NCBI GenBank assembly: GCA_017654855.1 | Contig: CM030338.1 | Location: 372,001 to 436,000, forward strand | Source of the DNA: Podospora anserina | Taxonomy: Eukaryota | Direction of reading: 5' to 3' | DNA: 64,000 nt | Part shown: positions 53,867 to 60,711 of the stretch, in pieces | How the letters are laid out: each line of letters opens with the position of its first letter | Numbering within the stretch: the stretch's first letter is position 1 | The notes under the pieces: model-generated | What the model saw: the letters and a program-made list of their open reading frames with translations, nothing else | Databases searched by the model: none | Told to the model about the DNA's origin: nothing | Made by a program: the position numbers and the translations under genes

Positions 53867-54965
53867 TTAGCTCATCATCACGACTGCACTATTGTTATCC
53901 GGCCTCCCCTTTGACACTCGTCGAATTGCCCGCCAGGCAAGATCAAACCTCTTGTCGTTCTTCCCAAACTTGCACATGCTCGAATGATCACCTCCCATCA
54001 TGACCGCCTCCTCATGTGCTAGCCACAAGACGGCCGACATTTTCTCCACCACCAGGCTGCCCAAGAGACGATGCGGTTGCTCTTCGTAAAAGCTGGCAAT
54101 GGCGTACTGATTGACATAAGGCTTGAAGTCCTCGGAGAACTCAAGTAGATGTGGTGAATGGGTTTCGAGCACATTGATGAATCTCGACTTGGGCTGGTTG
54201 GTGGCTGTTTGCACAATGCGTGAGACAAGACCGAGCCACTTTGTTTTGTCAGCACCTCGGTGAGGGGTTCCAAAGAAGACCTATCTTCTGTCAGCACTGA
54301 CTGGGAGGAGTTTATACGATAGGGAGGTACTCAAATGACTTACTATGCCTCTGGTGCAGTCCGCTATGTCAGCGTACCAGGGTTGTGAGAGTCGCCGTCG
54401 GTTCTGATTAGCTGTGGATATGGCCTGTTTGATGACAATGCCACCAAGACTATGCCCAATAAAGACAATCGAGCGGCCTTCTGCTTCCTAGATTCCGATG
54501 TCAGCGAGCCTGCGTGAAGACGTTTGCATATCAAGGTCACCTACGTCTTCCCGCACATTCCACAACTCTTCCAGAAGTTTTGCGGCATTCTCTTCTATCC
54601 CGAATGCTGACCTGTTGCCAAAGATGGATGAATCATACTCAAAGGTCATGATGCGAGCGTTTGGCAACTTTTCGGGCAAAAGGTCACGCAGCCATACTGT
54701 GTCTGTGTCGGTTTTGGTAGCACCCTTCCGTAGTAACCTACTCCAACGGCGAACCGGCTTGGCCGGAGCGTCCGTGTGAGTCCAGGTGTGAAGGTAATGT
54801 CCGTTGAGGCCATGTACAGCGATGATGCTTATGGTCAAGGTGGTCAGCGTATTTGAGACTGATAGGCATTTCAAAGGTAGGTGAGAACTACTCAAGCTCG
54901 ATGAGGCCCTCTTTGGGGGCATGTAGAAGGTGTATAGATCCAGATTGTTGGGAGTCGCCGGCCAT
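53867..54965 (-). CDS. Stand-alone SesB/DUF676-like alpha/beta hydrolase 1, 4 exons
   Basis: Spliced: MAGDSQ..IELD|IIAVHGLNGH..WLRDLLP..ARIMTFEYDS..|..IVFIGHSLGGIVIKQA..|VFFGTPHRG..DHSSMCKF. Confidence 0.88.
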
Positions 54966-55828
54966 GATTGGGAATCACGACGTGGCAGTGAACTAAGGTG
55001 ATGTCTCTTGTTCAACTTTTGATGTTTAGTTTGACTGACTGGGGGGCTCTGGAATGCGCGTATAGTATTATACGTTTCGGCTATCATGCGTCTTAATATT
55101 ATAGGTTCCCTTCCTATTTCCTGCTTCCATATCAAGTTGGGCACCCGTTTGCACTTCGGTACAGCGAACCTTCAGCTTCTCCTAGCACAGACAGAGTGAG
55201 TTGGCAAGGTCAAAATGACTCAGATTAGTCCCTTGCAGAGTCTGTACCTCTGACCTGGACCACTTGGAAGCACCAGATGCATCGCCACCTTTGCGGGCGT
55301 GAGCTTGTAAGTCGGGCAGGTATCAGGCAGTGTTGGTTGCAGCAGGCACAGGCCTCGGGTCTGATTCGACCAATAACCGCTGGATCCAGTATTTGCTTGG
55401 CATAGGACTTTTGATGGCCATTCCACCATTTTTGTTGTCTTGGTTATTGCACAAAAGAGAACAAGTCAACATAAGGTAGTGGGGGCATACGTTAGTCTCC
55501 CTCGAGCCGGACTTGCCGCATCAAGTTACCTGGGTGCGTTGGGTTGGGAATTTGCTCCATTTCTTGCTTGCAGTCTTACAGGTTGTCAAGGTTGATTGAC
55601 TACCCGATCCAAAAGTCAACACCAAATCACCTTGGTTTGTCGGCTGGATAAGGTCAGCAGGAGCTTATAACAACCACCGACTCCAGCCTACACATGGCTT
55701 CGACAGCTTTCGGTCCGATTCACAGGCCACACCTCCACACGTGACCTGACCCTCGCTACCCAGCCGCCATTCTACATTGAACTCGGGCTATATCGACACT
55801 ACGACGCAGATTTCAAGCCTCTGAAGCC

Positions 55829-57299: not shown

Positions 57300-60200
57300 T
57301 CAGTCAGAGTCAAAATCCTTGCCTCGGACTGCCTTACCTGTGATATTCTCGTTAGCTTAGGCCAGACCAAATCATCCGAACTGTGGTGCGACGTACCAAC
57401 ACTACTGACTGCTTTCTTGATATTCCCGAAATAGCTCCTTTGTTTCCTGTTCTTCTTCTTCTCGATGTATTGTATCCTGTCGATCTGCTGCACCTCTGGT
57501 TTGATCACTACTTTGACAACGTCCCTCGGAACTTCTCTCACGACGTCCACTTTGACCTCTCTTACGACGTCTACTTTGACTTCTTTCACGACCTCTTTGA
57601 CAACTTGTTTCTCGACTGGAACCTCCTTTACGACCTCTCTCTCCACCTCAATAATCTCCTTCTCAATGATGATCATCGGTTGCGAGGATTGCAATCGTAT
57701 CTTATCTTCCTTCCTGCTGGCCCTCTTGACGTGTCCGGATCTCTCGTGCGGAGGAAGGGTGCAACCCGATGTATCGGCCTGGCGTCGGGTTGTCTGGTGC
57801 CGTGGAGGCAATGATCCAGAAACCTCACTGTCACCGCCTCCTGGGTTGTCAGGCGGGCTATTGACAATCTTGTCCGCCAGACGAAGGTCCTCCTCGGGGA
57901 AGGCTTGCTCCGACCCCCTTCTCATGAACCACCACACTTCGGTCCAAGACTTGGCACGACCATCCCCTTCTTGCGTCAGCAATTCTTTCTGTCTCTGGGT
58001 GTCTGCGTCAACGTCTTCCCCTGCTTGATGATAGTGTTTGTGCCAGTATAGCGAAGCATAACGCATGAACGGGCGGTCCTTCAATGTCTTCCGGATTCGA
58101 GACTCCCAACTGGTTTCGGAGCTTTCTCCAGCCGGTCGTTCTGCCTCTTGCATGCTGAGGTACATTGTGCAACTGCTTGCGAGTAGGCCTTGAGGGGTGA
58201 GTTCCTCTGGGTTCTTCTCAGCAATAGTTTCGAGCTTGGTTGCAATATGGCTCTTGGCGGTTCGGTGAAGAGACGAAAGGCGTCCATCAGCGAAGTTGAC
58301 AAGCGGTCCGCAGTAGAAATCGACTTTGGCCTTGAGGTTCTCGTCGAGGCAATCGGCTAGCTGTTTCTCTGTGATGATGGCTCCTGGGAACTTGCGCATG
58401 GCTTTGGCCACTGCCAAAGCGGTGTTAAGTTCCGTGATGTTGAGCGCATCTTCCTGAAAGGCGGCCCAGGTGAGGACATTTTTGATGAACCGGGATGTGT
58501 CTGGATCGTAGCTGTTTAGCAGGCGGTCTGAGTGGCGATCACAGAGATGCTGTGTATCATCTGGAATCTCTTTCAGAGCCTTTAGAATGTCGTCTTTGTC
58601 CTTCAGGCGTGTGCGTTTCAGCTCTTCGCTTCTTAGAATTGACCGCAGATACGAGTCATCGACCCTGTTGCCCTTGATGTCACCCAGCACCCTCGTTCTG
58701 AAATCTTCGTCACCAGGTGCTACCTTCTCCAACAGACGTGTCAAAAGGCCGCTGATACTTCTCATAATGTCTGCCTCATTGTCTCCTCGTTGAATGGGGC
58801 AGTCGTTGATTCCCAGGCTTTGAATGTGCTTCTGGATCGTTGAGTTGTGTTGGGAGACCACCAACAATCTCAACTGCTTGGACTGACCGAGGCCTTGGTC
58901 TAGCTTCTTGATACATTGTAAAAAGGCCGTTTGGTCATCAGAAGGGATTTCATCTAGCCCGTCAACGACAAGCGTCATGGTGTGTTGATATCCCATGATC
59001 ACTCTTGCCATTGCTATGGGCCACAGCTCCACTAGCCTTTCTGCCGTCCACACCGATCCTTTTGATCTTTCTCGTGATTGAGCATCCTCAAAGGTTGGCA
59101 GGAGGAACTCCTTGATGATTTGAGGCTGAAGTCGCAAGGCCTGGTGCAAAGTAGATTGTAGAAGAGCATCGATGTTGTTTCTTGATGCATACATGTTGCT
59201 GAGAAAACAATGAATGACCTCCTGCCTTTCGTGTGGAACCGTGCTGTCAGATCGGACAATGTTGTTAGGCTGTAGGATGTGTGTAATGATGTGCTTGGTC
59301 AAGAAGCTTTTACCGCTGCCTGCCGGGCCGTGTATCCACAGCTTGCCATTCCCAGCCTCCCCTTTGCACCAATATTGAAACTCGGGACGCTCTTTTATCC
59401 AGTCGCCCGTTCCAGGAGTGTGCTGTCTCCCGAGAAAGTAGGCGTGGAATTTGTCGGAAGAGAGTGAATACAGGGCTCTCTTGGCTAAGTAACCAGCCAT
59501 GTCTGAAGGCATGTAGAAGTCTTAGTCAACATCCACATGAATAGACTGGACACGGAATCTCTGCATACGTACCCAGTGCATTTGGTTTGTCTTTTTTGAG
59601 AAACTCGACTCCGTCCCAAATGAGCCGAAACGCACCAGTTTCCTCTCTGGTAAATTGGCAGATTGTGAGATGGTTACCTGCGAGCATGTCGTGCCTCTCA
59701 TGACCATGATGCATTTTCCCATAAAGACTATTCACAAGCTAAGTAGTGAGGGAGCCTGTCAGCAGCTGCATTTCAAGCTTTGGGCTTTTATGGTGCATAA
59801 CTGGACAAGATGGAGAATACTCTAGGATACTGCAAGAGAGAGGTAGTGAAGCATGTACATACAACATGTTTCAGACCCGGCATTGGTTCTTCTTCAACAA
59901 ATGTAACAAATGCTAGGCTGTCATACAAGGGCTTGAAATCTTCTGTGATATCTCGGAGATTATCACAGTTTTTCTCAAGTTGTCGGACCATGGTGCGGGT
60001 GGGCATTGCTCCCTTTACTGGAGCGTCGTGTTGAAGCACAAATCGAGCAAAGTCCCTCCAAGTGTTCCTATCCAGCCCATGGTGAGGAGTTGCAAAGAAC
60101 ATCTGAGATTTCATTAGCGTCAGCTTCTCAGTGTTAGCCACCCCGATGACTGTTGCCGGTTGAAACTTACAACGCCGCGGGATGCCTCCCAAATCCCCCT

Positions 60201-60711
60201 ATATCTTTGCTGGACAAAGCGAGCCACGTACAATGCCCTCTTGATGATCATCCCTCCCAGGCTATGGCCGACAAATATTATTGGCCGCAAGGTAGCGGGT
60301 TCATCATCTTCTCGATTGTTGTACAACCAATTCAGCAAGTCATTTGCATGCTCTGTTATACCAAGCATGCTCATGGTGCCATTGAGCGAGGTGTTGTACT
60401 GGAATGAAAGAACTCTGATATCCGTAACGTAGTCAGGCAAGAGATCTGATGGCCAGACGGTTTTCAAGTCGTCTTTCGCCTGCCAGGTCTTGATGAAGTG
60501 TCCCCCAAGTCCGGGCACAAGGACAACACTGTTGTTTGGGAATACTTAGCACTGATCTGATAAGTTCATTGCAAACCTATAGGATGTGAACTTACTCGGC
60601 CTGTACCCTAGCTGTGGGCTCGTTCTTTGGATGAAGGACTTTAATAGCAGAGCCACCGCTGTCATCAAAAGCTTTCTCTTCTTGTCTGGGTCTGTAAATG
60701 GAAGTCGTCAT
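57300..60711 (-). CDS. NLR-like protein: SesB-like N-terminal hydrolase + NACHT + winged helix + V/K/E-repeat tail, multi-exon
   Basis: VVLVPGLGG, GHSLGG, FFATPHHG, NHLTICQF; Walker A GPAGSGKS, Walker B LVVDGLDE, LHRTAK, FMRYASLYWHKH. Last intron 57338-57396 gives GKAVRGKDFDSD*. Confidence 0.88.
57490..57675 (-). repeat. Coding V/K/E-rich repeat (EVVKEVPVEKQVVKEVVKEVKVDVVREVKVDVVREVPRDVVKVV)
   Basis: Imperfect 12/24-bp DNA units visible around 57520-57640. Confidence 0.85.

Follow-up and report, generated by a model that had tools for sequence, protein, structure and literature searches.

A conserved triad of SesB-like hydrolase genes, one of them fused to a NACHT NTPase, in Podospora anserina

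Three adjacent hydrolase genes on chromosome 7

We analyzed a stretch of 64,000 nucleotides from Podospora anserina (contig CM030338.1, positions 372,001 to 436,000; hereafter the window). Three adjacent genes in this window, called A, B and C here, carry one SesB-like alpha/beta-hydrolase domain each, and in C this domain is fused to a NACHT NTPase, so that C resembles a NOD-like receptor (NLR; NOD stands for nucleotide-binding oligomerization domain). According to the names on their best database matches, A, B and C are Pa_7_4060 (304 aa), Pa_7_4050 (405 aa) and Pa_7_4040 (1048 aa) of P. anserina chromosome 7. Judged from sequence, the triad is a conserved non-amyloid module of an NLR and paralogous hydrolases, a variant of the theme in which an NLR gene stands next to the gene of its effector. 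The three genes are neighbors in six species of the P. anserina complex in all: consecutive tags 704060/704050/704040 are found in P. pseudoanserina, P. pseudocomata, P. pseudopauciseta and P. bellae-mahoneyi, and P. comata and P. anserina S have matching consecutive accessions for A, B and C. Of the 304 residues of A, 296-299 agree with the proteins of the complex, as do 392-399 of the 405 in B and 941-1010 of the 1048 in C, where shorter gene models explain the lower values. The features of the locus are listed in the table.

An earlier note on this DNA had described three adjacent genes with a common alpha/beta-hydrolase domain, two of them head to head about 860 bp apart and the third fused to NACHT and converging on the second, with introns before the first HG/PG strand and before FxTPH in all three. 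Gene models, Pfam and BLASTP agree with this description. The start codons of A and B are 863 bp apart, C has Walker A and B motifs and its stop codon lies 74 bp from that of B, and both introns are present in the three spliced models. One is a phase-2 intron directly 5' of the first strand (D/IIAVHGLNG, D/LVLIHGLNG and D/VVLVPGLGG in A, B and C, the slash marking the intron), and the other is a phase-0 intron directly 5' of [VFM]FF[GA]TPH. The models of A and B are identical to the stored proteins P0006 and P0051, and the model of C agrees with P0074 of P. anserina S in 1047 of 1048 residues. In public annotation of P. anserina S an intron of B is called differently, so that protein P0049 (394 aa) is without the 11 residues FFFGTPHSGAK, and the protein given for A (P0057, 370 aa) has a longer N-terminus that differs from the RNA-supported model.

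Table. Positions of the triad genes and their parts in the window
Feature	Positions	Strand	Basis or remark
Gene A (Pa_7_4060), free A-type SesB-like hydrolase	53867..54965	-	spliced in-frame model, 4 exons
Exons of A	54965-54892, 54827-54545, 54487-54344, 54280-53867	-	304 aa
A/B divergent intergenic region	54966..55828		863 bp, ATG to ATG
Gene B (Pa_7_4050), free B-type hydrolase	55829..57161	+	spliced in-frame model, 3 exons
Exons of B	55829-55890, 55954-56296, 56349-57161	+	405 aa
B/C convergent intergenic region, stop to stop	57162..57235		74 bp
Gene C (Pa_7_4040), C-type SesB-like hydrolase fused to NACHT NTPase	57236..60711	-	5 exons, without repeat domain
Exons of C	60711-60596, 60528-60171, 60102-59863, 59738-59573, 59502-57236	-	1048 aa
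Hydrolase domain of C, exons 1-4, residues ~22-290	59573..60711	-	sequence, Pfam, AlphaFold model
NACHT core of C (Pfam NPHP3_N), residues 324-510	58853..59413	-	Pfam, Walker A, Foldseek
Disordered C-terminal tail of C (predicted), residues ~845-1048	57239..57850	-	predicted local distance difference test (pLDDT) <50

A and B share a divergent region from which both are transcribed, and their splicing follows the models. We compared the models with transcript contigs from four public runs of four studies, whose RNA status is a guess, and counted exact intron-less joints as support. Eight of the nine modelled introns match joints in spliced contigs exactly. The joints of A introns 1, 2 and 3 were present in four, three and four of the four runs, respectively, and those of both B introns in all four. 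Joints of C introns 1, 2 and 4 were found in one run of four (X1). The contigs of the four runs contain no joint for C intron 3 (59862-59739), and they likewise leave the 3' end of C unconfirmed; contigs mostly do not cover C in X5, X6 and X8 and cover it in short low-depth pieces in X1, which has no bearing on its expression. A contigs extend to 55043-55175 and B contigs begin at 55448-55589, which leaves ~270-400 bp between the transcripts. At the other end of B, contigs reach 57193-57216, i.e. 20-43 bp short of the C stop codon. Since the two stop codons are 74 bp apart, the 3' transcript ends of B and C must overlap, and this convergent overlap could allow antisense interplay. At position 55097, in the 5' region of A, one X6 contig reads C and the window T, probably a strain difference.

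The hydrolase domains are recognized by Pfam with different margins. In searches with the full proteins, DUF676 (PF05057) scored 28.2 bits in A and 21.7 bits in C, above the cut-off of 20.3. B is just below the Pfam cut-offs (DUF676, 20.0 versus 20.3; Abhydrolase_6, 24.8 versus 26.3). Domain-against-domain BLASTP of A with B, A with C and B with C gave E = 2e-43, 4e-55 and 2e-39 at 32-35% identity, and the matches of B to A and C (E = 2e-43 and 2e-39), together with the tree described below, place B in the SesB-like family. A and C have the nucleophile elbow GHSLGG, with predicted triads S132/E233/H266 and S128/E228/H261, respectively. The elbow of B is AHCLGG, in which Cys (C106) replaces the nucleophile Ser; Glu and His are kept. 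The nucleophile Ser is present in 27 of 28 A rows of the alignment (one gap) and 27 of 28 C rows, and 15 of 16 B rows have Cys or Ser. Among the 16 representatives of the B clade this position is Cys in 12, Ser in three and Arg in one; the Cys of B is unchanged in all five close orthologues. The Cys-type forms make up one clade of 13 rows (99/95), and the Ser forms are basal to it. The catalytic acid is most likely the Glu of an (F/Y)(Y/V)E motif, which is kept in 112 of 116 rows (two gaps and two Ala in the rest) and, by type, in 28 of 28 A rows, 15 of 16 B rows and 26 of 28 C rows (two gaps). The catalytic His is found in 27 of 28 A rows (one gap), 16 of 16 B rows and 23 of 28 C rows (five gaps). 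In the AlphaFold model of C this Glu lies at the end of beta7 and the His after beta8, which is the canonical layout. Because the triad residues are kept and the layout of the C model is canonical, A, B and C look catalytically competent. A loss of the catalytic acid in C (N at VLVN, N before the His) was considered and rejected, since among A-clade members these positions are variable, and since the canonical acid position is taken by the invariant Glu at the end of beta7.

The three types differ in conservation and in their tails. A is the most conserved type and C the least (57% versus 39% identity to Lasiosphaeria ovina proteins). A-type proteins are 82% identical to A in Cercophora samala, 47-58% in most other Sordariales aligned and 38-39% in the two most distant, and HSLGG is kept. 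In the AlphaFold model of B, residues 5-262 are ordered and the tail 265-405 is disordered. The last ~22 residues of B (57060-57158) are basic, RRPNFLKRFAGRLRxKQTL, and kept in five of five orthologues, and the rest of the 140-aa tail varies among them; the basic motif could be a membrane- or partner-binding helix. The closest solved structure by sequence is BlEst2 (6wpx, E = 0.0026), followed by family I lipases of Burkholderia and Pseudomonas (E 0.1-0.7). The closest folds of B and C are generic alpha/beta hydrolases, namely KAI2/D14, monoacylglycerol lipase, thioesterase domains and RsbQ, and a search of the ESM Atlas with the B domain returned generic DUF676 clusters only.

C is NLR-like. 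Its N-terminal SesB-like domain (residues ~22-290) stands where NLRs carry an effector or signaling domain. It is followed by an NTPase that matches NPHP3_N, a NACHT-type model, at 2.8e-28 and NACHT at 3.1e-5, with Walker A GSGKS at 355-359 and the Walker B region VVDGLDE at 472-478. Foldseek matches of C include MalT, Apaf-1, Avs3, CED-4 and RPP1. The AlphaFold model of C (mean pLDDT 72.8) is ordered over residues ~20-845, where it shows the hydrolase, NACHT and a helical arm that reaches 842. From 845 to 1048 the pLDDT is <50, and this tail is predicted to be disordered. The alignment of the C-type family is conserved to about residue 820 of C and variable beyond. ANK, WD40, TPR or HEAT repeats were found in none of 15 C-type proteins (867-1419 aa) at E <= 0.001. 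C is called NLR-like but atypical because a repeat sensor domain is missing in both the family and the model. A strict definition of NLRs requires C-terminal repeats (Bonometti 2025), by which C is not a full member. The C-type looks like a conserved family, not like an immune receptor of the birth-and-death kind. A family of repeat-less hydrolase-NACHT proteins would escape NLR surveys that demand C-terminal repeats. Two details of C may be added: annotated orthologues in the P. anserina complex are 980-1048 aa long, and Tandem Repeats Finder detected a 24-nt tandem repeat in the 3' part of the gene (57519-57601; ~3 copies, 71-80% matches) that encodes V/E/K-rich units (VVKEVKVDVVREV...) within the disordered tail.

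Conservation of the triad in other fungi

The A, B and C types are shown by the trees to be ancient, separate clades. A search with C exon 2 among 1.84 billion representatives returned 3626 matches at E <= 0.001. The top matches were long proteins (500-1400 aa, 49-65% identical) that bear NACHT and stand above any relative of A or B; the first A-family protein appeared near rank 50 with 44% identity. We built a first tree of 116 domains and a careful maximum-likelihood tree of 72 domains, which included the metagenome genes described below, and both recover the same three clades. The A clade (19 rows, support 100/95) contains free proteins only, of 250-350 aa. All members of the B clade (19 rows, 100/100) are free as well, and all full-length members of the C clade (20 rows, 100/98) are NACHT-fused. 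The order among the three clades differs by tree, with B and C together at 82 in one and A and B together at 83 in the other. With clade supports of 95-100 and only 32-35% identity among the three domains, the question of local duplication or ancient co-retention, which the earlier note had left to phylogeny, is answered in favor of ancient co-retention.

The arrangement of the three genes is kept in metagenome contigs. Contigs of the Joint Genome Institute (JGI) were scanned with the A-type patterns FFGTPHRG and [VI]A[VI]HGL[NGD]G[HD], and 80 loci were kept. Six-frame fragments were typed by clade-specific profiles, which recovered the window's own genes with margins of 169-194 bits, and each metagenome gene lands in the tree clade predicted by its typing. 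Ten of the 80 loci contain a strong free A-type gene. Four of these (L001, L068, L069, L071) have less than 200 bp upstream of A and fall outside the assessable set. In the six with at least 2 kb (L006, L014, L019, L042, L067, L072), a B-type gene lies upstream of A on the opposite strand in every case; L042 and L072 are the same in sequence, so five distinct organisms are represented. A C-type hydrolase-NACHT gene converges on B in all three loci with at least 6.9 kb upstream (L006, L014, L019). Their order C(+) B(-) A(+) is the arrangement of the window read from the other strand. Controls came from the other 70 loci, whose genes are other SesB-like ones (NACHT-fused in 24); 39 of these loci extend upstream by 3 kb or more, and a second SesB-like gene was found in 0 of the 39. 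The NACHT exons of the four triads (the window, L006, L014 and L019) are 25-32% identical pairwise, and the flanks differ: an Ap4A (diadenosine tetraphosphate) phosphorylase gene in the window, a short-chain dehydrogenase/reductase gene and transcription factor genes in L006, an Aquarius helicase gene in L014 and an ankyrin protein gene in L019. The C-B-A order is thus kept in three very divergent fungal contigs, and the refutation that the earlier note had named, a triplet confined to one genome, does not hold. Because the same order and orientation are kept in very divergent sequences, A, B and C are probably one working unit, and we infer that their proteins act together.

Details of these loci agree with the gene models of the window. 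Fragment boundaries in the metagenome loci fit a kept intron before FFxTPH in every B- and C-type gene, and two further C-specific introns fit the boundaries in all four C-type genes. Introns have been lost in some A-type genes, and the A gene of L001 is a single open reading frame (ORF). The open frames of B and C end 262-518 bp apart in L006, L014 and L019. The A/B intergenic regions of six loci contain no convincing shared k-mer motif; seven 7-mers were shared by five of the six regions versus 0.8 in shuffles, and longer common words fall in the first coding exon of B.

Sub-clades of the three types also pair with each other. Among A genes, those of L006, L042 and L067 cluster with Madurella fahalii P0028, and the B genes of these loci with M. 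fahalii P0136; the two M. fahalii proteins are encoded on equally long contigs. In A, B and C alike, L019 and L014 have their partners in other sub-clades, and M. fahalii has a further A-type protein (P0019) in a second sub-clade. The pairing of the A, B and C sub-clades suggests several triad sub-families, which may share one genome and occur side by side within Sordariomycetes. Patristic distances agree with inheritance of A, B and C as a unit: r was 0.91 for A versus B over nine linked pairs, which was reached by none of 5000 permutations, and 0.69 for A versus C over five pairs, reached by 134 of 5000. For B versus C, r was -0.04 over four pairs only, a number that gives no power.

Named genomes suggest the same linkage in Monosporascus, Magnaporthiopsis and Lasiosphaeris. 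Consecutive accessions served as the yardstick of adjacency because they track adjacency in the six Podospora species. In Monosporascus sp. 5C6A (Xylariales), C-type DL771_003150 and A-type DL771_003152 have one tag between them, as in Podospora; the corresponding tags in Monosporascus sp. GIB2 are DL765_007097 and DL765_007102. C-type KAK0708682 and B-type KAK0708683 of Lasiosphaeris hirsuta are consecutive, with the A-type on an equally long contig, and Magnaporthiopsis poae (Magnaporthales) has C-type MAPG_05534 and B-type MAPG_05538. A and B lie on equally long contigs in C. samala and T. setosa (115.8 and 18.7 kb, respectively), as do A and C in L. ovina and P. appendiculata. In Diplogelasinospora grovesii the C-type protein P0082 (1040 aa) contains, at 925-1032, part of a further hydrolase domain, which types as A (123 versus 80 bits); the gene model has probably joined C to A over a B gene on the opposite strand.

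A possible non-amyloid signaling module

Few N-terminal domains are commoner in fungal NLRs than the SesB-like one (Dyrka 2014; Bonometti 2025), in line with the earlier note. P. anserina has 36 SesB-like genes, 12 of NLRs and 24 of other proteins (Lamacchia 2016, Table 4). With 36 such genes, three in a row are unexpected by chance, and tandem duplication would be the ordinary explanation. In the available parts of the papers, free SesB homologues beside NLRs are described only with sigma or PP amyloid motifs (Daskalov 2012, PMC3321046; Wojciechowski 2022). We searched A, B and C with strict and loose patterns for PP, sigma, PUASM and HET-s-like motifs, built from consensus strings in PMC3321046 and PMC9815663 and not from the profile HMMs (hidden Markov models) of these papers, and found none in the three proteins, so that the absence of amyloid motifs noticed earlier held in this search. 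The fraction of charged residues was 0.25-0.30 in five of the six termini scored and 0.12 in the first 40 residues of A. A stretch of the B tail, ERHIMIGADLTGQVH, was considered as a HET-s-like repeat and rejected, since it is absent in T. setosa, has no match in C and lies in a tail predicted to be disordered.

The triad resembles several known systems in part. In the sesA/sesB/het-eN cluster of Nectria haematococca, a free SesB-type gene also stands beside a NACHT protein of the STAND class (signal transduction ATPases with numerous domains), which is proposed as its controller (PMC3321046), and there too the effector genes are divergent and triads occur (Daskalov 2012, PMC3321046). That cluster differs in that a sigma amyloid motif couples the effector C-termini to the NLR N-terminus; moreover, its NLR has ANK repeats and no hydrolase domain and sesA is unrelated to sesB, whereas one fold occurs in all three proteins of the triad. 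Canonical SesB-like NLRs of P. anserina, such as Pa_2_10340, Pa_6_7270, Pa_6_7950 and Pa_7_10370, resemble C in having an N-terminal SesB-like domain fused to the NOD. They have TPR, HEAT, ANK or WD repeats, often hypervariable, whereas all 15 C-type proteins have none and form a clade of their own. A sesB domain is cited in the execution of regulated cell death (GBE 2026). Plant sensor/helper NLR gene pairs have a common promoter (Bonometti 2025; Daskalov 2023). The triad is not a head-to-head NLR pair of the plant type, since only C has NACHT and the A/B pair consists of free hydrolases. HELLP/SBP/PNT1 and het-S/nwd2 are like the triad in that an NLR and adjacent effector genes form a conserved unit; they have PP or HET-s motifs, a short NLR N-terminus and TPR or WD repeats, all of which the triad lacks. 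SBP is a SesB-like lipase. The triad also has adjacent NLR and effector genes; what it lacks is a shared amyloid motif. In homotypic NLR signaling of animals and plants (CARD, PYD, TIR), the receptor shares its fold with free downstream proteins, as in the triad. Here the shared fold is that of an alpha/beta-hydrolase enzyme, and only one of the three genes is an NLR. Human SERAC1, bacterial family I lipases and BlEst2 share with the triad the DUF676/PGAP1-like lipase fold and the GxSxG and GTPHxG motifs; several A-type proteins are labelled 'SERAC1' by their source, and the likeness to SERAC1, family I lipases and BlEst2 is weak. For the role of SERAC1 we follow Dyrka 2014. The names Pa_7_4040, Pa_7_4050 and Pa_7_4060 were not found in the paper texts searched, and no description of the triad was found in the literature; the supplementary NLR lists of Bonometti 2025, GBE 2026 and Wojciechowski 2022 may include Pa_7_4040 or its neighbors.

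We favor, with slightly better than even confidence, the explanation that the triad is a conserved module of paralogous SesB-like hydrolases in which oligomerization of C engages A and B. The A-type would be a small, slowly evolving Ser hydrolase, the B-type a hydrolase with mostly a Cys nucleophile and a disordered tail, and the C-type a STAND NTPase with a hydrolase fold N-terminal to NACHT and a helical arm, and no repeat sensor. Nucleotide-driven oligomerization of C would cluster the C hydrolase domains. The clustered domains may then engage free A and B by like-with-like contacts, and an ester- or lipid-hydrolysing activity at membranes might be switched on or redirected, with cell death or remodelling of membranes as the outcome. 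In this view the sesA/sesB/het-eN and HELLP/SBP/PNT1 clusters would have in the triad a counterpart that works without amyloid. Of the NLR-hydrolase signaling module proposed in the earlier note, the conserved unit is upheld by gene order and phylogeny, and the mechanism, be it homotypic recruitment or guarding of the free hydrolases, is hypothetical. Two points change the picture drawn there: C is an atypical NLR, with no repeat sensor found in 15 C-type proteins, and the C-type resembles a conserved family.

The genes may instead belong to one pathway without any recruitment. A, B and the C domain would act on the same or successive lipid or ester substrates, NACHT would regulate C only, and the cluster would be kept for co-regulation. 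The catalytic residues kept in all three proteins fit this account, as do the short A/B divergent region and the convergence of B and C within 74 bp. Kept order and orientation fit regulatory coupling, and a C-type that lacks a sensor and looks conserved rather than hypervariable is easily accommodated. However, the A/B intergenic regions of the six loci have no conserved cis motif, and fungal gene order is seldom known to survive protein identities of 25-32% by co-regulation alone. A STAND NTPase is an oligomerizing switch, which suggests assembly (the fold matches of C are MalT, Apaf-1, CED-4 and Avs3). We regard a pathway of this kind as unlikely, although a serious contender. It is improbable to us that C is a guard with an integrated decoy, in which A and B are the real enzymes hit by covalent inhibitors or effectors of competitors and the C domain is a bait that releases the NACHT switch. 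The full catalytic triad is present in nearly all C members, so the C domain is not a degenerate decoy, C-type genes lack repeat hypervariability, and there is no known effector or inhibitor. On the other side, no further domain of C is a candidate sensor, conservation is highest in A and lowest in C (57% versus 39% to L. ovina, as above), and the receptor hydrolases D14/KAI2 and RsbQ are among the nearest folds of B and C, a similarity that is generic.

Chance or inertia could also have retained SesB-like paralogues of local duplication with no functional coupling at all. SesB-like genes are numerous in P. anserina, 36 in number (Lamacchia 2016, Table 4), and NLR genes cluster in Sordariales (Bonometti 2025). 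Against this, four triads agree in clades, order and orientation at 25-32% identity of their NACHT exons and with different flanks; B lies beside A in six of six assessable loci versus 0 of 39 controls, and clade supports are 95-100. We consider this last explanation very improbable.

Several observations weigh against the favored explanation of a recruiting module. The identity of 25-32% may reflect an old duplication of the whole triad rather than distant taxa; either way the arrangement, as read from these sequences, is one that has outlived very deep divergence. Grouping of A, B and C apart from 13-14 other SesB-like representatives is weakly supported (70/17); it is not rejected (approximately unbiased (AU) test, p = 0.587), for a group that was named after seeing the tree. 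Co-divergence of A, B and C is expected from shared descent alone and is no sign of interaction. Linkage in named genomes was read from tags, accession order and equally long contigs and not from DNA. The contigs of A and C are unequal in length in three of the eight species for which both are named (Chaetomium sp. MPI-CAGE-AT-0009, L. miniovina and D. grovesii, P0011), a separate place holds the B-type gene in Monosporascus sp. GIB2, L. miniovina, P. fimiseda and M. mycetomatis, and L. hirsuta has a second B-like copy on another contig; additional paralogues may account for some of these unlinked copies. For C. samala and T. setosa, a search among word-sharing candidates of 414-1320 aa yielded no orthologue of C. 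Finally, Pa_7_4040 is outside the 17 STAND genes up-regulated in incompatibility that are given in Table 3 of Bidard 2013.

To our knowledge, amyloid templating is the only described route from a fungal NLR to a separate effector gene. A motif-free unit in which the receptor and both its neighbors have one enzyme fold points to a second coupling principle, and free SesB-like copies are about twice as many as fused ones in P. anserina (Lamacchia 2016). A bolder form of the explanation, which is speculative and which we hold to be doubtful, is that the triad is a new type of NLR signalosome whose signaling currency is an enzyme fold and not a death-fold, TIR domain or amyloid. The hydrolase domain of the repeat-less C would sense a ligand, as receptor hydrolases do, and C, once oligomerized, would template hetero-assembly with the Ser-type and Cys-type paralogues into a composite lipase or acyl-transfer machine for membrane damage or remodelling, inherited, and perhaps duplicated, as a unit across filamentous ascomycetes. 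For work in a tractable model fungus the triad offers three genes with defined residues of the catalytic sites and Walker motifs, and in B a switch from Ser to Cys that occurs naturally.

Neighboring genes in the window

The genes around the triad are metabolic. They encode a P450, a GMC oxidoreductase, a catalase, a laccase, a GDSL lipase, a 2-oxoglutarate (2OG) oxygenase and a GNAT protein, and the Ap4A phosphorylase gene adjoins A. Among 96 ORFs of at least 130 aa in the window there is no second NLR. A Fic/DOC-domain ORF (38365-39225, +, 9.3e-18) lies beside an ORF of 680 aa (39540-41579, -) that matches DUF7730; both are unrelated to the triad. Past the start of C, the ORFs 61070-61753 (+) and 62727-63203 (+) are without a Pfam match and look coiled-coil-like by eye. 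The former contains an internal duplication, NWELEYQCNDLKDKVRRLEAQLR / NWELTYQCEDQKEEISRLRNQLR.

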